Virus record (IMG/VR): IMGVR_UViG_2713896785_000025
Direction: 5' to 3' (one strand)
DNA: 12,187 bases
Source: a virus
Taxonomy: Duplodnaviria; Heunggongvirae; Uroviricota; Caudoviricetes
The first letter of the stretch is position 1, and each line of letters opens with the position of its first letter. The notes below the pieces were generated by a model. It was not told the origin of the DNA. It ran no database searches and saw only the letters and a program-made list of their open reading frames with translations. Both the position numbers and the translations under genes were made by a program. Positions 1,462 through 12,187 of this stretch are shown one piece after another.

Positions 1462-2062
1462 ATATGTCCTTTTATCACCACAGCAAGGCAACCCATTGAT
1501 TTAATTAAACAACACACACTGCAAAAAGTGCTAAAAACAGCAAATTGACTACACCATTAACTACACCGTTCGGTGCACTGTATGAAACAACGTGGAACAA
1601 ATAGACACAAGAAATATACAGGCGGGTAATCTTTCCAGGGGGAAGCGCACCAATTCATGAGGGGCGTTAATGTCGATATGGGGATCCCCATAACGGGGCT
1701 ACCGGATTTTTTTTCCGGTTAACTGTTAATCAGGCTGGTGGGTTTTACCTGTTCGGTAGGTGTTATGATTATCGTAATACCTTTCCCCCAGTGGGGTAAA
1801 AGCTCCAACCGTAACGATGTTCGTTGTGGTTGCCTTGATGGTCTGCGTGGTCATTATGACCATTCAGAATATGAAGGGTGACGCTTCCGACTTCCTCAAA
1901 TTGAGGTTTCCGAAAATATCAGCGGGTTAGCGATTAATCTGACCATTAATTAAACTACGAAAATTTCGTAGTTTGTGAATATATTCCGGCCTTCTGGTTA
2001 ACAGTCCTCAGATGTGAGGGATGTAGCCAGCGCAATTTTGCGTTATCGGGAATATCAGCAAG

Positions 2063-2376: not shown

Positions 2377-2572
2377 TCGGGTCCTTCCTGGAATTATGGT
2401 CCGTTACGGGGCGGCGACCTCGCGGTTTTTATCTGTTTATGAGAATTTTCCGGCAAAAGTCAGATCCGATCTTCTTCTCTGTAACAGACTGTTTAACAAC
2501 GAAAATATTAAAAAAAGAAAGGATCTGACACGAGGCATTTTAGCCAGAAAATGCCATTATCAGATCCTTTCT
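2377..2572 (+). other. Lambda-type cos site (cos1): cosQ-like flank, cosN GGGCGGCGACCT at 2409-2420, cosB-like R elements at 2460-2479, 2516-2528 (inverted), 2560-2572
   Basis: 12-nt overhang sequence identical to lambda cosN as recalled; flanks GTTACG / CGCGG..TTTATGA.AATTTTCCGG resemble the lambda left end; three repeats of TCAGATCC(G/T)(A/T)TCT in R3/R2(inverted)/R1 layout with hairpin 2534-2555 between R2 and R1. Confidence 0.8.
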
Positions 2573-2599: not shown

Positions 2600-3142
2600 T
2601 TACTCGCCTTTCTTCTGTAGCAACTTTTCCGGTACGTTTCCGGTTGTTTCTTTCAAGTAATCAGCCAGTATCTGTGGGAGGTTGTCGGCAACTCTGGCAC
2701 TGGCATTACAGGCTTTAACCACTTCCCTTTTAAGCCTGTCCAGCATGGCGGGGGGAATCTGTGGGAAGCTCCTTTGCATAGTAAGCGGGAGGATGTCCAT
2801 GATTGATGAAATCTGACTCGCCAGCTTTGAAAGCGCGTACAGGCAAAACTCAGTATCAATCACGTCACCGCGATCGCGATCGTTTTTAAGTTCCTGCGCC
2901 TCTGCCTGTGCTGTCAGTAATCTGATCCTGACTCGTAAAAGTTCATCATCGTCAATCTCGCCTTTGTCGTTTATAAGCTGGCTAATTGCATTGTTAACCC
3001 TATTTTCTATCACGCTGGCAACATCATAAAACGCCTCACGGCCTTTACGCTCAACGGGAGTTACTCCCCACTTGTCGAACGCTGTCGCACTTACACGGCA
3101 GCTTTTCGCCATGTTTTTTTTGTTCATCAGATGAGATTTCAT
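2600..3142 (-). CDS. Terminase small subunit, lambda Nu1-like (180 aa)
   Basis: Blocks shared with lambda Nu1 as recalled: NKK near N-terminus, LT(A/R)AQA(E/D)AQELKN.RD, (E/A)FC..(A/V)LS, ILPL(T/S)(M/V)QR.FP, LKR(E/D)(V/I)(V/I)KA. SD-like GGTG before ATG 3140-3142. Confidence 0.85.
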   Translation of the reverse strand: MKSHLMNKKNMAKSCRVSATAFDKWGVTPVERKGREAFYDVASVIENRVNNAISQLINDKGEIDDDELLRVRIRLLTAQAEAQELKNDRDRGDVIDTEFCLYALSKLASQISSIMDILPLTMQRSFPQIPPAMLDRLKREVVKACNASARVADNLPQILADYLKETTGNVPEKLLQKKGE

Positions 3143-3250: not shown

Positions 3251-3319
3251 GGCTCATAAATAGCGAAAATCCGCGAGGTCTCCGCCCCGTAACAGGTCCA
3301 TATGCCGGAAAGGACCCGC
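3251..3319 (-). other. Second lambda-type cos (cos2) in minus orientation: cosQ-like flank, cosN-like GGGCGGAGACCT (rc of 3276-3287, one mismatch), proximal cosB-like sequence, about 135 bp upstream of terS start
   Basis: Minus strand reads GCGGGTCCTTTCCGGCATATGGACCTGTTACG GGGCGGAGACCT CGCGGATTTTCGCTATTTATGA, closely matching the lambda right-end/left-end junction as recalled. Confidence 0.7.
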
Positions 3320-3341
3320 AAAAAAGCCGGATTTCTCCGGC
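3320..3341 (-). terminator. Intrinsic terminator (copy 1 of a thrice-repeated motif)
   Basis: Minus-strand RNA: hairpin GCCGGAGAAAUCCGGC followed by U6; 7 nt downstream of stop of gene 3348-3761. Confidence 0.6.
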
Positions 3342-3347
3342 CTTGTC

Positions 3348-3761
3348 TCAGATGGTTTTCAGTATGCGATCGATGTCGCCGTCATCGCCCGGGTTTCTGC
3401 CATCGTATGCCATGCCAGCTGATACGGCTTGTGGGCTGTGCATGTCCATAAAGTTTTCAAAGGCTGCGGTAAGCTCTGGTGCAACCTTCGGGCGTTCCTG
3501 CTCTATGGTCATGTTCAGGATGTTTTTAGCCGTATCAACATCAATACAAGGCACGTTTGCCATTGCACGTAACAGCGGCTGATAGTCGTCAGATTCATGA
3601 AGCGCCATAATCGCATCAGCGCGCGGCTTGTCCTTCTCTTCCAGGCTGTTAAGTTGATATACGGCCTCGTAGGTTGATAAACCTCTGTCAGCCATTGCCC
3701 GCGCTTCGGCTTTAAATTTACTCGCCAGCGGTAGCGTCATGATACTTTCATTCGTTGCCAT
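3348..3761 (-). CDS. Hypothetical protein (137 aa), between decoration gene and terS
   Basis: ORF with SD-like AGGGGGA upstream of ATG; 12-nt gap after the upstream gene stop; no recognisable motif. Confidence 0.65.
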   Translation of the reverse strand: MATNESIMTLPLASKFKAEARAMADRGLSTYEAVYQLNSLEEKDKPRADAIMALHESDDYQPLLRAMANVPCIDVDTAKNILNMTIEQERPKVAPELTAAFENFMDMHSPQAVSAGMAYDGRNPGDDGDIDRILKTI

Positions 3762-3773
3762 CGTTCCCCCTGC

Positions 3774-4109
3774 TTATCGCGCCAGCGGCTGAACGGATAC
3801 GCCAGAACCCGCAAAGGCGGCGCATTTTTTCGCGTCGGTGTCGGCGCTCTCAGGCCAGTTAACGGCGGCAATATTGAATATCCCCGTCTTGTAGCACTGT
3901 GCTGATTTCTGCGTCGACGTGTCCACGGGGTACGAGGTCAGATAAACAGCCTTGCCAGATTCCTGACCATCCCACGGCTTAAACTCGCCATTTTCCGCCA
4001 GCATCAGCGGGGTAAATTCCTGAATAACGCCAGCATCAGCAGCAAAATGTACCAGCGTCGTGGATACCTGCTGACTACCTGCAAATAACTCAATGTATGG
4101 AGTGTCCAT
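3774..4109 (-). CDS. Head decoration protein, lambda gpD-like (111 aa)
   Basis: Motifs shared with lambda D as recalled: TPLML, WDG, YK(T/S)G(I/T)F, WPE, KK..AFAG; same length class; SD GGGGGGA in 12-nt spacer after MCP stop. Confidence 0.85.
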   Translation of the reverse strand: MDTPYIELFAGSQQVSTTLVHFAADAGVIQEFTPLMLAENGEFKPWDGQESGKAVYLTSYPVDTSTQKSAQCYKTGIFNIAAVNWPESADTDAKKCAAFAGSGVSVQPLAR

Positions 4110-4121
4110 AGAATCCCCCCG

Positions 4122-5177
4122 TTAACCAATTTTGACGGTAACAAATTTGCGAATATCTGCCGGTACCGGCTGCGGTGCGCTGTGCGTCTGCACGTACTCA
4201 ATCGCCGGATCGCCGTCCTCAATCCAGTTTTTCGGGTAAAACATGTTTTGCGTTGCGCCCGTTCTGACCGCTTCCTGATCCATAATCGCACCATAGGCCA
4301 CCAGCCCTTTATTGTTGGTGTTACCCAGGACCAGCAAATCAGGCTCAAGGAAATATTTTTCGGTGCCGTCGCTGTCAGTGTATTTGCCGGAATAGACGAC
4401 AAGGGCAATATCGCCCAGATAGCCTTTAAAGCTCACCACTTCACCCAGGTTTTTACAGGCCAGTTCTGCGGCGGATTCTGAACCACGGGAAAGGTCGTAC
4501 AGTTCGCGGAATTTTTTAAAGCTGCGTAACGTGCGCCATACTTCAGCGCCCATAATCATGACGTTTGCGGGGCAATTGCCCTGATCAGCATAAAGCTCGA
4601 TGTCATAGATTGGATCGTGTGTTTCTTTATCCAGCTCAGACCATTTTTTACCGTCAGCCTGTTCTATGATATTGCTTTCCGGGATCTTCCAGTCGATTTC
4701 ATAGCGTTCTATGCCTTCGCCCTCAATGAGGTTTTTTCCGGTCGTTACCGCATTCACCGCCAGCCATTCCACGCGTGCCTTAATGGCGTTTATCTGGCGG
4801 CGCATGTTGCCAGTAATCAGGCGCATACGGCGATAGGTAGGATCGTTAAGCTGTGCCGGATCTTCTCCAGCCATGCGCATGATGGTTTTTGTTGGATCGA
4901 TTTCGTGTTTGGGTTTCATGTAGCCTGGTTTAATCGTGCTGGTTTCGTACCCTTTATCGCGCTGGACCTGACTACCCACCATAGGCGAACAGAACGCTGA
5001 CATCGTAACCTCTTCAATGTCCAGGGTGTCCAGCATGATGTTCTGGGTGTTGAAGGTCGCCACGTTCGGGAAAAACAGCGTGGTAAACAGCGGACTGAAT
5101 TTAAATTCTGCAATATCCCCGCGATTCAGGTACGCGAAAAGCTGGTTAGTGTTAAGTGCCGTTGCTTTGCCTGCCAT
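4122..5177 (-). CDS. Major capsid protein, lambda gpE-like (351 aa)
   Basis: Motifs shared with lambda E as recalled: (K/E)FKF.PLF..LFF, PGY(V/M)KPKHE, EDP..L.DP.YRR.R, YSG.Y, YPKNW...GDPA, SAP. Strong SD GGAGGTGA; start overlaps upstream stop (TAATG). Confidence 0.9.
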   Translation of the reverse strand: MAGKATALNTNQLFAYLNRGDIAEFKFSPLFTTLFFPNVATFNTQNIMLDTLDIEEVTMSAFCSPMVGSQVQRDKGYETSTIKPGYMKPKHEIDPTKTIMRMAGEDPAQLNDPTYRRMRLITGNMRRQINAIKARVEWLAVNAVTTGKNLIEGEGIERYEIDWKIPESNIIEQADGKKWSELDKETHDPIYDIELYADQGNCPANVMIMGAEVWRTLRSFKKFRELYDLSRGSESAAELACKNLGEVVSFKGYLGDIALVVYSGKYTDSDGTEKYFLEPDLLVLGNTNNKGLVAYGAIMDQEAVRTGATQNMFYPKNWIEDGDPAIEYVQTHSAPQPVPADIRKFVTVKIG

Positions 5178-5383
5178 TATTCACCTCCATGCGTCTGATT
5201 CATGCCCAGCGCCGCGCGTAAATAGGCGCGGACCTGCCAGCCTGTTGACGGCTCAACCATCGCCAGCGGATCAAGTCCTGCCGCAATGCCTGCTTTTACG
5301 TTCTGCTGGTGGCGTTCCTTGAGCGCCTTCACGATGTCGGGGCTTATGTACACCGAAACACCGCCTTTTTTCTCTTCAGCCAT
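5177..5383 (-). CDS. Hypothetical protein (68 aa), first gene of capsid operon
   Basis: ORF with SD AGGA 7-9 nt upstream of ATG; stop overlaps MCP start codon. Confidence 0.6.
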   Translation of the reverse strand: MAEEKKGGVSVYISPDIVKALKERHQQNVKAGIAAGLDPLAMVEPSTGWQVRAYLRAALGMNQTHGGE

Positions 5384-5439
5384 AGTAAGAAATTCCTCTT
5401 CGACTTAAAAAATCATAACTGGATGTTTATCCAGTCCTG

Positions 5440-5467
5440 ATTATAATCAGAATTGCATTTTATGCAA
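5440..5467 (-). promoter_or_regulatory. Candidate sigma70 promoter for capsid operon (-10 TATAAT, -35 TTGCAT, 16-nt spacer) overlapping palindrome TTGCATTTTATGCAA
   Basis: Minus-strand hexamers read from rc of 5440-5445 and 5462-5467; inverted repeats at 5453-5467 and 5418-5435 (ACTGGAT-GTTT-ATCCAGT). Confidence 0.4.
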
Positions 5468-5548
5468 TGATATTGAGTTATGTTGCAAATTATGAAATGA
5501 TTATCCCGATCACGAACGCCAGTGCATCCAAAAACCTCATATGCAAAA

Positions 5549-5586
5549 GCCCGATAAGAACCCTCTGACCTTATCGGGCTTTTTTT
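5549..5586 (+). terminator. Hairpin plus T7 (10-bp stem GCCCGATAAG/CTTATCGGGC); strong on + strand, weaker on minus
   Basis: Perfect 10-bp inverted repeat with 11-nt loop followed by TTTTTTT on + strand; A-run on other side gives U4 on minus strand. Confidence 0.5.
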
Positions 5587-5592
5587 GGGCGC

Positions 5593-5614
5593 AAAAAAGC
5601 CGGATTGCTCCGGC
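5593..5614 (-). terminator. Intrinsic terminator (copy 2 of repeated motif)
   Basis: Minus-strand RNA: hairpin GCCGGAGCAAUCCGGC followed by U6; about 20 nt downstream of gene 5635-5859. Confidence 0.6.
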
Positions 5615-5634
5615 TATGTGTGCTGTGTGCTGGC

Positions 5635-5859
5635 TCAGTCTCTGATCTCTTTCAGAAATTCTATCAATGCATCTATCTGTTCAGGATTTACCGCCAGCAT
5701 TTCACCGGATAGAGCACATCTCACAAAACCATGCTGATCCTTTTCAATCAGTGCGCCCGTCTCCAGGAATGCGCGGTAATCATTGATGCTCATCGTCTCC
5801 ATGTTGTCAGCATGGTATTTATCACGCTGTTTTAATATCTCATCAAATTTCATCGGCAT
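5635..5859 (-). CDS. Hypothetical protein (74 aa), terminator-insulated cassette
   Basis: ORF with SD AGAGGA 9 nt upstream of ATG; no recognisable motif. Confidence 0.6.
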   Translation of the reverse strand: MPMKFDEILKQRDKYHADNMETMSINDYRAFLETGALIEKDQHGFVRCALSGEMLAVNPEQIDALIEFLKEIRD

Positions 5860-5955: not shown

Positions 5956-5978
5956 AAAAAAAGCCGGATTTCTCCGGC
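5956..5978 (-). terminator. Intrinsic terminator (copy 3 of repeated motif)
   Basis: Minus-strand RNA: hairpin GCCGGAGAAAUCCGGC followed by U7; 8 nt downstream of stop of gene 5986-6258. Confidence 0.6.
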
Positions 5979-5985
5979 TGTTTGA

Positions 5986-6258
5986 TTAGCTGTCCTGGTA
6001 ATTGCGCCATATTTCATCACCAGCACCATCTATACCCATTTCGGCATAAGTGCGATCGACTGCCTTTTTCAGGTCTCCGAAATTATCCGGCGGCTCCGGT
6101 GCCCTCTGTGCCTTCCTTGAACATTCCAGCCGTCGCATCGTGATGTGATGCCGTTCCTTGTCTGTCTCCACCAGCTGCATGACTTCACCCCATCGCGCCG
6201 CCGCCCTCCGGTAAAAGCCTTTCGCCTCCAGTTCCTCCGCTATGCGGTCATGTACCAT
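5986..6258 (-). CDS. PerC-family transcriptional regulator-like protein (about 90 aa; start refined from the 130-aa track ORF)
   Basis: N-terminal motif D.IAEELEAKGFYRRAAARW typical of the PerC/Pch family as recalled; internal ATG at 6256-6258 has SD GAGGGGG 5 nt upstream, and the SSB stop codon lies within that SD. Confidence 0.6.
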   Translation of the reverse strand: MVHDRIAEELEAKGFYRRAAARWGEVMQLVETDKERHHITMRRLECSRKAQRAPEPPDNFGDLKKAVDRTYAEMGIDGAGDEIWRNYQDS

Positions 6259-6939: not shown

Positions 6940-7130
6940 CTCACTTTTTCGCCTCACTTTTTCAAGCGTCTCACTTCGTCGCAGTTGGGATTTTCGGTTT
7001 TTCTATGTGTGTGTTTCATAAGTATTTTTTTACCCCTCACTTTTGAGGATGTATACAGGTCGAAAAGTGAGGGAGAGCGGGCTAATTTTGGCCCTCTTTC
7101 TATCCCCCTCGCTTTTGCTCCTCACTTTTA
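6940..7130. repeat. Iteron array / candidate origin of replication (CTCACTTTT repeats, one inverted) with AT-rich tract
   Basis: CTCAC(T)4 at 6940-6949, 6953-6962, 7036-7045, 7121-7130; variants at 6970-6978 and 7108-7117; inverted copy AAAAGTGAG at 7063-7071; AT-rich stretch 7001-7034; immediately downstream of replicase gene. Confidence 0.6.
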
Positions 7131-8528
7131 TAGCGGCGCTACATCATCCCCATCGATACGAATAACCCCATCTTTTTCCAGCTTGTACAGCCAGCGCCGG
7201 AAGTTTTTCATTTCATACCCCAGCTTTTTCATGTCATCACGTAACAGCGGGATCGTGCACTTGTCGCCGTTCTGTGTGCGTGAACGGATGCACCCCCATA
7301 GCGCGGTATGGTTTTCCGTCTTGTTCCCTGCCTCCTCGATGCGCTCCAGTTCAACAGGAGGGCGCGGATCATCCACCACCACCAGCGACGTGATTAATTC
7401 ACCGTCAGCGTCGGTAAAAAGCTCCACCACGCGTAAGTCATATGCGGCTTCTTTGAGTTCCTCCGCGTCCTTCATTTTGGTGCATGAGATAACCAGCGCT
7501 TCGCTTCCTGCGTCCTCCCTGCGTATCCGGTATTCAGCATCCAGCGAAGCACGAAATGCACTGGAACCGCGCGCGCCTTTCGTCTCATCCTTGCCGGAAT
7601 GGTGAACCACCAGCACCGTGGCCCCTGTGCGTCGTTTCAGTTCGTCACAACCACGGATAAACGCCCCCATATCACGGGAATCATTTTCATCATTCCCACC
7701 AAAGCAACGCGCCAGCGTATCCAGAATAATCATGCGTACAGGTTTACCCGTTTCCCGCTCCACCTGACGGGCAGCGATAACCATTTCATCAACATCAAGC
7801 GGGGCAGCCGGAAAGATGGGGCGGTTTACCAGATACAGATTTTTCACCTGCTCATCGTGCACAACCTCCCAGGCTTTTACACGACGCGGAACACCTATAC
7901 CGCCTTCACCAACCACATAGAGAACCGCACCATGTGCAACCCTGCGGCCTCCCCACTGGCGACCAGTGGCAACATGGCACGCCCACGATCCGGCAAGGAA
8001 TGATTTATAGGACCCGCTAGCCCCGTATATGCTGCATAGCGATACCGCCGGAATAATCCCCTTAACCACGTAATCCAGTTGCGTGTCGTATCCGGTAGAT
8101 CCAACGCTCATCGGTAGCGTGGTTTTTCGCTGGTGGTTTTTTTCTTCCGCCGGCTCTTTCCCGCGCACCCGTTCCAGGTATTCGCGCCAGTTCTCCCGCA
8201 TATGGCTGTGCATCCCTTCGGGGTAATAATTCGCATCAGTTACACCCGCCGCCGCCAGCTTGTGCGCAATGGCATTAATATTTGATGGCCTGATGTGGCC
8301 TGCCTTGTACAGCCGGACACAATAGCGCCCCTCGTCGATGATTCTCAGGTCTGCCAGTTCATCCAGTTGATCATCAGCCAGCACAACGGGAGGCACATTA
8401 TCGCCAGCCAGTCGCCCGTCCTGTTCCTGCCACTGTTTCGCATGTGCCCAGGCATCACTACCCGCAAAAATAATGACTTCGGTCATCTTGTCGTAAGGCT
8501 GTTTTTTTAAGTTCGGTGCGCTTTTCAT
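7128..8528 (-). CDS. Replication protein: RecA-like AAA_25 ATPase/helicase-type replicase with N-terminal possible Toprim/primase-like domain (466 aa)
   Basis: Walker A GASGSYKSFLA...HVATG, Walker B-like MIILDTLARCF, HHSGKDETKG motif; SD AGGGG; start overlaps upstream stop (ATGA). Confidence 0.85.
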   Translation of the reverse strand: MKSAPNLKKQPYDKMTEVIIFAGSDAWAHAKQWQEQDGRLAGDNVPPVVLADDQLDELADLRIIDEGRYCVRLYKAGHIRPSNINAIAHKLAAAGVTDANYYPEGMHSHMRENWREYLERVRGKEPAEEKNHQRKTTLPMSVGSTGYDTQLDYVVKGIIPAVSLCSIYGASGSYKSFLAGSWACHVATGRQWGGRRVAHGAVLYVVGEGGIGVPRRVKAWEVVHDEQVKNLYLVNRPIFPAAPLDVDEMVIAARQVERETGKPVRMIILDTLARCFGGNDENDSRDMGAFIRGCDELKRRTGATVLVVHHSGKDETKGARGSSAFRASLDAEYRIRREDAGSEALVISCTKMKDAEELKEAAYDLRVVELFTDADGELITSLVVVDDPRPPVELERIEEAGNKTENHTALWGCIRSRTQNGDKCTIPLLRDDMKKLGYEMKNFRRWLYKLEKDGVIRIDGDDVAPL

Positions 8529-8871
8529 TTCTTGCCCCTGAATCCGTTAATCATGGTTTTCAGCTTCTGGATGTTTGCCCGTGCCCTGGCGTTGCTGGTG
8601 GGCACGTTATGCGGCGCGGTCTGTACCAGAGAAAAATCACGCCGGAACTGATAAACAGGCATCACGCAATCATATTCGTAACCTTCACGNNNNNNNNNNN
8701 NNNNNNNNNNNNNNNNNNNNNNNNNNNNNNNNNNNNNNNNNNTGATTTTTGTTTGTCGCGTTCATTGTCGCCAAGTGTTTCAAGCCATATGCGCAATATT
8801 TCCAGCATGTTTTCACTGTGAGAAAGTGCAAGAAATGCGCGGTCTATTGTTTGGTGGTAAATATCACGCAT
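8525..8871 (-). CDS. Hypothetical protein interrupted by assembly gap (N-terminal 43 codons 8743-8871; C-terminal 54 codons 8528-8689 plus stop 8525-8527)
   Basis: Both fragments are open right up to the gap edges; ATG 8869-8871 with SD GAGGA; C-terminal frame ends with TGA overlapping replicase ATG. The stated gap length (53) is not a multiple of 3, so continuity is unproven. Confidence 0.45.
8690..8742. other. Assembly gap (53 N)
   Basis: Run of n characters in the sequence. Confidence 1.
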
Positions 8872-9328
8872 GGCTTACATCCTCAGGAAATTTTCTTCTA
8901 TAACGCGCCTCTGCCACATATTCCGCATAATCGGCGGCGATATTCAGTACATCAAGCCCCGTTGATTTATATTCTCTCGTGGAAAGTAAGAAAAAAGCCG
9001 CTCTAATAAGTTCTGGCATTGACGAAAGCGCATCAGCCGCATCATCAGGAACGCCGGAAAATTCCTGTTTCAGGGAATTAAAACGATCATCACGCATAAC
9101 CCCCCCATTTTCACAATCAGCAATCAGGATGGCTTTGGCCTCATTCAGCGCCATATCCGCACTAAGTTGCATAACCGCCAGCGAATGAGGAACGAAAGCC
9201 CCGGCATATTCTGTTTCACTGGTGGCGTGCTTATGCGCCATGTCTGCGATAACAGAAATATCAATCAGCGCGTGCATTAGCGTTATGATGGCTTCGGCGG
9301 CTGCGTCCGGACGGATGTTATTGCACAT
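8864..9328 (-). CDS. Hypothetical protein (154 aa), first clearly supported gene of leftward early operon
   Basis: Near-consensus SD AGGAGGTG 5-6 nt upstream of ATG 9326-9328; stop overlaps next start by 8 nt. Confidence 0.65.
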   Translation of the reverse strand: MCNNIRPDAAAEAIITLMHALIDISVIADMAHKHATSETEYAGAFVPHSLAVMQLSADMALNEAKAILIADCENGGVMRDDRFNSLKQEFSGVPDDAADALSSMPELIRAAFFLLSTREYKSTGLDVLNIAADYAEYVAEARYRRKFPEDVSHA

Positions 9329-10403: not shown

Positions 10404-10592
10404 TTAATGAACTGCCTTGCAGCTATCCTTCCAGGCCAGAACCTCGGATAAAGACCAGCCAACGGAACGACCGCCAAGTTTACGACGTGATGGGAATTGT
10501 CCGGCCTTTTCCAGGCGGTAGCGACACGTACGGCTAAGGCCGGTTAGTTTTTCGCATTCTTTTTCACGTATAAACCGATCAGTGCTTAACAC
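10404..10592 (-). CDS. AlpA-family transcriptional regulator (about 62 aa from GTG; track gives 89 aa from TTG at 10673)
   Basis: HTH block LTGLSRTCRYRLEKAGQFP..RKLGGRSVGWSLSEV.AW typical of AlpA/Phage_AlpA as recalled; GTG at 10590-10592 (rc) preceded by SD AGGGGGG with 5-nt spacer; no internal ATG. Confidence 0.8.
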   Translation of the reverse strand: MLSTDRFIREKECEKLTGLSRTCRYRLEKAGQFPSRRKLGGRSVGWSLSEVLAWKDSCKAVH

Positions 10593-10865: not shown

Positions 10866-10910
10866 TTGTTCGTGGTTGTTCCACGTTGTTTCACATTGTT
10901 CGCCGTTGTA
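10866..10910. repeat. Five phased direct repeats TTGTT at exact 10-bp intervals
   Basis: TTGTT at 10866, 10876, 10886, 10896 and TTGTA at 10906; adjacent 16-bp perfect palindrome CAGTATGCGCATACTG at 10925-10940. Confidence 0.55.
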
Positions 10911-10957: not shown

Positions 10958-12187
10958 TTATTTTCTTCTGGCTGCTGGTAGTGCGGTTACGTTTTCATGT
11001 GTTCCCGCCAGTATCCCTAACCGCTCCATCCACATATCCAGCGCATTGCGTTTAGCATCCAGATAACGGGAATGATTATAAACTCGCTGCATTCCTGGCA
11101 TCTGGTGGCCTGTAAGCTGCTCCACGACGTGAGGATCCACGCCTAAATCGCTCAGCATCGTTGTAAAGGTGCGCCGGATGTCATGTAGTGACCAGTGAGG
11201 GTGATTTAGCCTCCTGTGCGCTAATCTGCCGTACTGCGACACGCTTGTTTCCTGTTTCACTTCCCCCAGCAATAAGCCCGTGTGCCTGTTCTGCTCCACC
11301 AGCTGCGTGACGAACGGCAGTATTGCTTCCGGTATGGGCCGGAATATTGCCACCTTCGTTTTGCTGTGTTCTTTCGGCACGGTCCAGAGCATTTCGGTAA
11401 AATCCCACTCGCTGATCTCCGATAACCTCAGTTCTACCGTCCGGCATCCGAACACAATCAGGAGGCGGATTAACGCGATGTAGTAGGGGGAGAATATTTT
11501 TTTGTCCAGTGCCTGCAATAATTCGCCCAGTTCTTTGGTGCTTAAGACACGCTCGCTTATATCCGGTTTTTTCCCAACGTCCGCCACACTCATATCATCA
11601 AGAACGTTGCTGATTGCATAGCGCCGCCTCCGGCAGAACTTAAGCGCCTGTTTGCACGTCTGTAGCAAGAATCCGGCAGTAACAGGCGTTCGCTTTGCCA
11701 CCTGGTCAAAACAGGCCAGCCAGTGCCGTAGCTCGCATTTATCCAGCGGCATAGCACCAATGTGCTGTATTACGTGATTATTAAGGCGCTTTTTCAGGGC
11801 GGCATAATCCACGCGGTTTTCCTTTGCGTACGACTCAAGCCAGTAGGTGAGCGCATCGCCAACCGTTACCGGCTTTAACGCTTCCTGTACGGTGTAATTA
11901 AGCTCATGACGTGGATTTTTCCCCTCTGCCAGCCATGCGCGACACTGGGCGGCTTTTTCCCTGGCTGATTTCAGGCTCAGATCAGGATAATTTCCCAGCT
12001 TAATGCGTTCCGGTGGTGCCCCCCTTCCCGTTCCGGCCCTGTAAGTGAAATACCAGGTTAAAAGGCCACTGGTTGAATGCCTGACGCTCAGGTTTCCACC
12101 GTCATTAAGAAAGGCTGTTTTTTGGGCGGGTGTGCCGTTGATTTTCCTCAGCTGTGTATCGCTCAGTTTGTTAAGTGCTCTGCTCAT
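10958..12187 (-). CDS. Tyrosine recombinase / integrase, P4-like family (409 aa; start codon at the window edge, so the 5' end could be truncated)
   Basis: N-terminal arm-binding-type region; catalytic-domain motifs GCRTVELRL, HDIRRTFTT, LTGHQ...VYNHSRY (R, H-x-x-R, Y). Confidence 0.92.
   Translation of the reverse strand: MSRALNKLSDTQLRKINGTPAQKTAFLNDGGNLSVRHSTSGLLTWYFTYRAGTGRGAPPERIKLGNYPDLSLKSAREKAAQCRAWLAEGKNPRHELNYTVQEALKPVTVGDALTYWLESYAKENRVDYAALKKRLNNHVIQHIGAMPLDKCELRHWLACFDQVAKRTPVTAGFLLQTCKQALKFCRRRRYAISNVLDDMSVADVGKKPDISERVLSTKELGELLQALDKKIFSPYYIALIRLLIVFGCRTVELRLSEISEWDFTEMLWTVPKEHSKTKVAIFRPIPEAILPFVTQLVEQNRHTGLLLGEVKQETSVSQYGRLAHRRLNHPHWSLHDIRRTFTTMLSDLGVDPHVVEQLTGHQMPGMQRVYNHSRYLDAKRNALDMWMERLGILAGTHENVTALPAARRK

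Follow-up and report, generated by a model that had tools for sequence, protein, structure and literature searches.

A conserved candidate promoter with paired dyads ahead of the capsid operon of an EcCICFT073-type satellite island

How does a phage satellite that carries capsid genes of its own switch them on? The question is raised by positions 5384-5548 of a 12,187-nt viral sequence (IMG/VR record IMGVR_UViG_2713896785_000025), which is referred to here at its full length as the window and which, judged from sequence, is an EcCICFT073-type phage-inducible chromosomal island (PICI) adjoining phoQ. The interval comes after two tandem terminators and lies 50 nt ahead of a five-gene module (orf68, capsid, decoration, scaffold and Nu1-like genes). 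The literature found on EcCICFT073-type PICIs (Fillol-Salom, 2018, PMC6092414; 2019, PMC6739421) covers autoregulation and induction of alpA, the origin and replication, cos sites and packaging redirection by Rpp, and does not describe the late-operon promoter. An earlier reading of the window by a model (the original prediction) had proposed that the interval is a promoter/operator cassette of the capsid operon, and comparison between islands supports this proposal through the position of the cassette after the tandem terminators and through an 81-nt core that is kept where the surroundings are replaced or diverged. The interval is very likely the promoter of the capsid/packaging operon. The best explanation as a whole, which is held with moderate confidence, is a sigma-70 late-operon promoter with protein-controlled dyads.

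The cassette and its conservation

The features of the interval and its flanks are as follows, with distances counted from the predicted start.

5594-5615 (stem 5598-5615), minus strand: terminator 1, hairpin AGCCGGAGCAATCCGGCT with a T6 run, found by terminator scan; it ends the early (alpA to orf74) unit.
5545-5583, minus strand: terminator 2, with 14-bp arms AAAAGCCCGATAAG / CTTATCGGGCTTTT that are 100% complementary, flanked by an A-run and a T-run (T4) and thus of the bidirectional type.
Roughly 5503-5431, minus strand: conserved cassette of ~75 bp, delimited by comparison across lineages.
5482-5498, minus strand: distal 17-bp dyad ATTTCATAATTTGCAAC (blocks ATTTCAT and TGCAAC), centred at 5490, about -57.
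5472-5476, minus strand: TCAAT block between the dyads.
5452-5468, minus strand: proximal 17-bp dyad ATTGCATAAAATGCAAT, a perfect 7+3+7 palindrome centred at 5460, about -27.
5440-5445, minus strand: -10 hexamer TATAAT, inside CTGATTATAATCAG and 16 bp after TTGCAT.
5432-5436, minus strand: predicted start window, placed by its distance to the -10, with a conserved CTG at 5434-5432.
5411-5442, minus strand: leader inverted repeat with 14-nt arms, 86% complementary, followed by T6 (5412-5407).
5381-5404, minus strand: orf68 translation start region GTCGAAGAGGAA, with GAGG at 5398-5395 and ATG at 5383-5381.
3321-3341, minus strand: internal terminator module, an exact match to GCCGGAGNAATCCGGCTTTTT that is not listed by the scan.

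The divergent islands used for comparison were gathered by orf68 protein homology and contig retrieval, not by motif. The islands from Salmonella, Pluralibacter gergoviae and an uncultured lineage have capsid proteins that are just 64-69% identical, and the 81-nt core is kept without indels in six deep lineages (E. coli, Salmonella, Pluralibacter and metagenomic), with the consensus ....AT.ATTTCAT.at.TGcAAca....tcaat....TTGC...AA.TGcAAt..tg.TTAtAATCa..aCTG. The conserved blocks are ATTTCAT, TGCAAC, TCAAT, TTGC, AA.TGCAAT and TTA(T/A)AATCA. Five of them are centred at ~5495, 5484.5, 5474, 5465.5 and 5454.5, about 10.5 bp or one helical turn apart, and cover about -65 to -20. Together the blocks make two 17-bp dyads of the form ATTKCA-N5-TGCAAY, 30 bp apart, a motif found at only these two places within the 12 kb window. 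ATTTCAT is invariant in the six lineages, as is TTGC, which lies 16 bp upstream of the -10; TGCAAC is found in 5/6 (TGAAAT in Salmonella), and TCAAT likewise in 5/6, being lost only in a natural chimera from E. coli JNEC-KY176 (KY176 below), which is also the only exception to the invariance of TGCAAT. The -10 itself is TATAAT in 5/6 deep lineages and TAAAAT in the sixth, and of 40 unique E. coli-type variants a single one departs from it, with TGTAAT.

Conservation ends on both sides of the core. Past the CTG at 5434-5432 the lineages diverge, and they converge again, in all lineages, at TTTTTT-N(1-3)-GTCA(A/G)AGAGGA followed by the ATG. On the other side, the spacer between terminator 2 and the core (5506-5544) is unrelated sequence in the W24 and KY176 islands, in which 40 bp, from terminator 2 to the repeats, have been exchanged and the repeats and TATAAT retained, and it is not alignable in deeper lineages. 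Tandem hairpins with T-runs stand upstream of the cassette in every lineage, those of the Salmonella, Pluralibacter and L198 islands being analogous ones, and the CFT073, W24 and KY176 islands keep terminator 2 along with the cassette. Megablast alignments break at about 5585-5594; from terminator 2 onwards, the DNA therefore moves as one with the capsid operon, and orf74 and terminator 1 belong to another module. This pattern is the footprint that would be expected of a promoter with protein sites of fixed geometry.

The elements named by the original prediction are all in place. The region is AT-rich (GC 33%), and both upstream terminators are real (5598-5615 with its T-run by terminator scan, and the 14-bp-arm hairpin at 5545-5583). 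TATAAT is present on the minus strand at 5445-5440, and so are the palindromes TTGCATTTTATGCAA at 5453-5467, whose arms extend to 7 bp (ATTGCAT-TTT-ATGCAAT, 5452-5468), and ACTGGAT-GTTT-ATCCAGT at 5418-5435. A third perfect palindrome that had been overlooked, CTGATTATAATCAG at 5437-5450, has TATAAT on both strands; its 12-bp core TGATTATAATCA is retained in E. coli and Pluralibacter islands and not in Salmonella or KY176, and its outer pair varies freely (C..G, A..T, A..G and C..T all occur). The three TTATG motifs do occur, at 5460, 5478 and 5490, but they are not a true repeat: they are incidental to a unit of 17-19 nt, and the middle copy (5478) is not conserved in relatives. The real direct repeat has a unit of 19 nt, ATCATT.CATAA..TGCAA, whose two copies (minus strand, 5471-5453 and 5501-5483) are 30 bp apart and agree at 16/19 positions. 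Three perfect palindromes with 7-bp arms and this repeat thus fall within 165 nt. When the 165 nt were shuffled 1000 times with dinucleotides preserved, the tally of perfect inverted repeats (arms of at least 6) averaged 0.59, compared with six counts from the three nested palindromes in the actual sequence (P = 0.001), and a direct repeat as good as 16/19 was similarly rare (P = 0.002).

The order read from the sequence is that of an early operon closed by the tandem intrinsic terminators, then the cassette, the 50-nt leader and the orf68 ribosome-binding site. In the proposed arrangement, sigma-70 RNA polymerase would initiate near 5432-5436 from TTGCAT-16-TATAAT, the 5' half of the proximal dyad supplying the -35-like TTGCAT (5467-5462). 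TATAAT at 5445-5440 has the A at position 2 and the T at position 6 that are characteristic of sigma-70 -10 elements. The sole promoter called by the scan, TTCATA-18-TATCAT, was rejected as the conserved one, since the islands of W24, Pluralibacter and L198/L200 have lost the critical A or T of its -10. A cos site within the interval was also rejected, the cosN-like sequences being at 3276-3287 and 2409-2420 instead. An Rfam search of the window at gathering thresholds returned no RNA family, and blastn of the interval against 50,697 phage records returned no similarity. A 16-base pattern scan of genome contigs gave, among the matches listed, chance matches in unrelated phyla.

Several points weigh against this reading. 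The -35-like TTGCAT matches TTGACA at 3/6 positions only, and the scan, the rule of which is at least 4/6, does not call TTGCAT-16-TATAAT. Most relatives are less than 10% diverged and conservation within E. coli alone is weak evidence, so the argument rests on about six lineages. Published start-site maps were sought for CFT073, Nissle 1917 and ATCC 25922 and gave no usable table, the only tables found being those for EDL933, which concern a capsid-forming PICI (cf-PICI). In the cf-PICI, the counterpart of the window's TGATTATAATC reads TGAGTATTCTC and is located at about +30 to +40 of the transcribed leader; because TGAGTATTCTC is inside that leader, homology alone cannot prove that TATAAT acts as the -10 in the present island type. 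The distribution of terminators adds a further point. The module GCCGGAGNAATCCGGCTTTTT, or GCCGGAG(A/C)AATCCGGCTTTTT, has three exact minus-strand copies, at 3321-3341, 5594-5614 and 5958-5978, which come after the scaffold-like gene, orf74 and the PerC-family gene, respectively, and the 3321-3341 copy splits the late operon, lying after the scaffold-like gene and before a cos site and the Nu1-like gene. Terminators between all gene blocks, including this one within the late operon, hint that read-through by antitermination matters.

The palindrome at 5418-5435 had been listed among the elements of the regulatory region. It sits downstream of the predicted start and is absent from one deep lineage, and it would rather be a 5'-terminal leader hairpin (an mRNA stabiliser or weak attenuator). 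The leader repeat consists of the inner stem ACTGGAT/ATCCAGT (5435-5418) and an outer stem, AATCA/TGATT, that overlaps the -10. In CFT073 it is a perfect 14-bp stem, with an RNA fold z of -4.9 if transcribed from upstream, and the G-A mismatch of the window is repaired one-sidedly to G-C in two independent variants (L126 and L133). The stem is broken without compensation in several other loci; in Pluralibacter the hairpin is displaced, canonical and directly before the T-run, and the L198 lineage has none. This variable state across lineages is the reason why the hairpin is treated here as a lineage-specific leader element. With a start at 5432-5436, the RNA would hold just the inner 7-bp stem at its extreme 5' end, with the T-run 5 nt beyond, and would therefore be a poor terminator.

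Candidate regulators of the dyads

The two dyads are probably protein-binding control sites. A dimeric or multimeric DNA-binding protein would occupy one site in the -35/spacer region (~-27) and the other three helical turns upstream (~-57). Negative control, in which the dyads serve as operators, is favoured over classical activation, because the -10 is perfect, the TTG of the -35 is kept and a protein at the proximal site would collide with polymerase.

The most economical repressor candidate would be orf68, the operon's own first product, which we regard as a possible, still doubtful, dyad-binding regulator. The dyads are directly followed by orf68 and the capsid gene in all 88 IMG/VR loci that have them and in each of the E. 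coli islands examined, with KY176 as the sole exception, and orf68 is the only gene that constantly accompanies the dyads. In KY176 the proximal TGCAAT has become TGAAAC and TCAAT is lost. The orf68 sequence fits the ribbon-helix-helix pattern, with a GGVSVYISPDIV-helix followed by a second helix, WQVRAYLRAAL, and the AlphaFold model has an N-terminal extended stretch and then two helices (predicted local distance difference test score 74). A few members of the orf68 family have Pfam matches below threshold, to BrnA antitoxin (0.017) and RHH_1 (0.15); a structural search with orf68 gave no significant match. Repeated subsites overlap the operon's own promoter, as in operators of the ribbon-helix-helix type. 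The autoregulated operons of this class (P22 Arc/Mnt at Pant, CopG, ParG, omega and type II antitoxins) share with the locus a small first gene, a strand-helix-helix pattern and subsites about one turn apart over the -35/spacer. The locus differs from them in that the fold and the DNA binding of orf68 are putative and in that capsid genes, an unusual cargo, lie downstream.

Other island products fit the distribution of the dyads less well. The suggestion that a PerC-like protein acts here is not borne out: among 67 loci, ~40% of the cassette-bearing islands with more than 6 kb upstream are without a perC homologue, Pluralibacter has none, and perC is found in cf-PICIs without the cassette. Likewise, orf74, SSB and orf83 were each rejected as the cognate regulator, being absent from some dyad islands or present in cf-PICIs without dyads; typical cf-PICIs have perC, orf74, SSB and orf83 and no dyads. 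AlpA is an unlikely regulator of the dyads, because the dyad motif is found nowhere else in the window and the int-alpA region has a different 25-mer, TTGTTCGTGGTTGTTCCACGTTGTT, which is absent from the interval and is the presumed AlpA site.

Factors from outside the island were considered through their known sites. The lambda genome has two matches to the dyad compared with 4.4 expected, and this lack of enrichment makes it unlikely that the binder is a lambda factor having such sites of its own. LexA control (CTGT-N8-ACAG) was rejected, with no match in 5384-5548 even with one mismatch and with the wrong spacing in CTG-N8-CAG, as was control by P2 Ogr or P4 Delta (TGT-N12-ACA near -55), which has no match in the interval. 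The patterns that we take to be those of sigma-54 (-24/-12), CRP, FNR and IHF did not fit on inspection. The half-sites bear a possible resemblance to GTTGCATT, which we take to be the CytR octamers, and the flanking CRP sites that CytR presumably needs are not evident. In Staphylococcus satellites (Staphylococcus aureus pathogenicity islands, SaPIs), operon I is a LexA-controlled packaging operon. The likeness to it lies in a separately controlled promoter for the satellite packaging/capsid module, and the difference in the LexA box, which the SaPI promoter has and this interval lacks.

Related control cassettes and alternative explanations

The promoter of the capsid operon of the cf-PICI EcCIEDL933 provides a comparison with a mapped start. 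It has the same island position (after ssb, perC, orf74 and a terminator), and ~25 nt around the -10 are homologous; it differs in that a 25-mer takes the place of the dyads, the hexamer reads TATTCT where the window has TATAAT, and transcription has been mapped to a start 45 nt farther upstream. Cappable-seq of EDL933 places the capsid-gene start at 1,687,918 on the plus strand in 7/8 per-condition columns (PMC10469882, supplementary file 6). This start is the A after ...GTTGTTCACTGACAGG, so that the 25-mer spans -35 to -11, and the leader of 205 nt ends in a strong hairpin and T8 just before the ATG. The 25-mer TTGTTCGTGGTTGTTCCACGTTGTT is found in the window at 10866-10890 on the plus strand, in the int-alpA intergenic region, and its 17-nt core recurs inverted at 1584-1600 (plus strand) near the phoQ-side end of the island. 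An identical 25-mer occurs in cf-PICI capsid-operon promoters; the copies noted are at 2423-2447 in locus L190 and at 8884-8908 and 2627-2651 in L204. This distribution suggests that the 25-mer is a site of AlpA/Xis type that also serves, within a promoter, as a loading element.

In the KY176 chimera (locus L004), the dyad cassette is joined at GACTGG|TGCC, about position 2501, to a cf-PICI leader and an operon of HK97-type capsid, protease and portal genes. Genomes covering both halves of this chimera number 1/5,426. The idea that its recombination junction marks the transcription start was rejected, as Cappable-seq of EDL933 puts the cf-PICI start 45 nt upstream of the junction. The comparison shows that late control is modular, the control cassette at one and the same position being different in the two satellite families and exchangeable between them. 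By analogy with AlpA of Pseudomonas aeruginosa, promoter-loaded antitermination may be counted as a live possibility for these islands.

For the cassette studied here, this would mean an antitermination element like lambda pR'-qut or that of P. aeruginosa AlpA: a largely constitutive promoter, the proximal dyad of which loads a processive antiterminator, supplied either by the helper (a Q-like factor) or by the island. Once modified, polymerase would pass the leader hairpin and the terminator at 3321-3341 and go on to the Nu1-like gene, and capsid and packaging genes would be made only with the factor. The architecture fits the AlpA/Q paradigm, in which an element lies between -35 and -10 and a terminator before the first gene (PMC7969949), and here the conserved element is exactly in the spacer. 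The leader hairpin with T6, the Pluralibacter hairpin immediately before its T-run and the terminator inside the operon point the same way, as does the EDL933 cf-PICI with its capsid-operon start seen under almost all conditions sampled, its 25-mer at -35 to -11 and its strong hairpin and T8 before the ATG. Compared with lambda pR'-qut-tR' and the AlpA-dependent alpB promoter, which share with the locus the element between -35 and -10, the leader hairpin with T-run and the further terminators downstream, the present cassette has no in-register similarity, only a weak, lineage-specific hairpin and, by inspection of the alignment, no -10-like pause element conserved in the initially transcribed DNA. 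RNA started at 5432-5436 would have just the 7-bp stem 5 nt off the T-run, a poor terminator, and several loci have a disrupted hairpin and the L198 lineage none at all. The cassette also has an extra, distal copy of the element, and in known loading sites for Q or AlpA a dyad at this position (~-57) plays no part. The likeness to the lambda Q element is ~7 bp out of register, and blastn against the 50,697 phage records was empty. On balance antitermination at this cassette is quite improbable, and the literature search found no paper proposing promoter-loaded antitermination for these satellites. Mimicry of lambda pR' or qut as such was rejected: ATTGnATAAAAT resembles lambda pR', but its distance to the -10 is off by ~7 bp, and it has no blastn phage match. 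The lambda late leader just before tR' (L125, about 408-425) has CTGCAAAATGCAATCC, and a 13-mer, CAAAATGCAATCC, is shared with the proximal dyad of some island variants; as a link to lambda this 13-mer was rejected as near chance, with ~0.09 matches expected by rough estimate.

Two further explanations keep the dyads or the terminators and change the mode of control. The interval may be an activator-dependent late promoter with a helper-phage or host protein on the dyads, which is the main idea of the original prediction minus PerC and is unlikely. P2 Ogr and P4 Delta at the P4 Psid promoter and the helper late activators acting on the SaPI packaging operon are precedents, and helper-late timing would make sense for satellites that depend on the helper portal, protease and terminase. 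A weak -35 (3/6) is typical for activated promoters; no upstream island gene is universal in dyad islands, which points to a factor acting in trans, and KY176 retains most of the cassette without orf68. Such an activator would have to work from dyad centres (~-27 and ~-57) that are off the usual class I and class II positions; the dyad is not enriched in lambda, blastn gave no similar DNA in the 50,697 phage records, and the interval has neither an Ogr/Delta TGT-N12-ACA nor a LexA box. Moreover, the late genes of lambda and phi80, the known helpers, are regulated by Q antitermination and not by an activator. Alternatively, there would be no promoter here at all, the operon being transcribed by read-through from the alpA operon (e.g., by AlpA-modified polymerase) and the blocks serving nucleoid-protein binding or DNA curvature. 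Terminators between every island gene block are as found in processive antitermination systems, P. aeruginosa AlpA is such a factor (PMC7969949), and the cf-PICI DNA homologous to the -10 region is within a transcribed leader. This explanation is nevertheless very unlikely: strict TTGC-16-TATAAT spacing over six lineages is hard to account for by read-through, the cassette moves as a unit with the operon at a typical distance to the ribosome-binding site, and the two strong tandem terminators suggest insulation. In addition, a PDB search with the island AlpA gave no detectable match to the P. aeruginosa antiterminator and only AlpA-family 8c3t (E = 6e-6). The sigma-70 promoter with protein-controlled dyads thus remains the preferred reading, and the cassette is an undescribed, well-conserved one of a familiar class.

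Island context and significance

Positions 1-1461 of the window are PhoQ, and the remainder is the PICI, with its genes on the minus strand as follows.

10958-12187, minus strand: integrase.
About 10404-10592, minus strand: AlpA-family helix-turn-helix gene.
7128-8528, minus strand: RepA-type helicase.
5986-6258, minus strand: PerC-family gene, after orf83 and SSB.
5635-5859, minus strand: orf74, the last gene upstream of the interval.
5177-5383, minus strand: orf68, the first gene of the operon (phrog_3255, a function-less family label).
4122-5177, minus strand: lambda E-type major capsid gene (Pfam Phage_cap_E).
3774-4109, minus strand: lambda D-type decoration gene (Pfam HDPD).
3348-3761, minus strand: orf137, Nu3/scaffold-like (PHROG search).
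2600-3142, minus strand: Nu1-type small-terminase-like gene of 180 aa (Pfam Phage_Nu1), with orf93 after it.

The window DNA is identical (100%) to that of E. coli E2865, in which the island lies between roxA and phoQ, and the region of the cassette is 92% identical to that at the same chromosomal site in strain CFT073, which is EcCICFT073 itself. DNA similar to this region is found in about 600-770 of 5,426 complete E. coli genomes. In EcCICFT073, c1499 and c1500 are the capsid and decoration homologues and c1503 is RppA, and two cos sites are reported (PMC6092414, PMC6739421). The late region of the window is of the same family and has the same order of int, alpA, replication, ssb, perC, capsid/decoration and an Rpp- or TerS-like gene with two lambda-like cosN; the Pfam search also gave a match to PerC in the window. 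Lambda-type cosN GGGCGGCGACCT is located at 3276-3287 (minus strand, one mismatch) and at 2409-2420 (plus strand, exact), and these two sequences, in opposite orientation, flank the Nu1-like gene, which fits the two cos sites reported for EcCICFT073. The Nu1/TerS-like gene encodes 180 aa here and 144 aa in CFT073, related islands being split about half and half, and a sequence search of solved structures with this protein gave no match. The best PHROG match of orf137 outside its own family is the C-terminal part of a head-maturation protease (PHROG 53, E = 7e-9), the part equivalent to the Nu3 scaffold of lambda. Genes for capsid, decoration and scaffold proteins thus seem to be present in the island, and genes for a portal or protease absent. 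A run of 53 N (masked or unknown bases) occupies 8690-8742 in the early region of the island.

EcCICFT073-type PICIs are widespread and spread virulence and defence genes, and the literature found leaves out how their capsid, decoration, scaffold and Rpp/TerS-like genes are switched on. The cassette gives this step explicit bases (two dyads, TTGC and TATAAT) and one candidate regulator, orf68. If simple autoregulation is true, the result would be a useful annotation and no surprise. If the antitermination reading is true, then, taken with the cf-PICI promoter, it would make promoter-loaded antitermination the means by which Gram-negative PICIs time their late genes.

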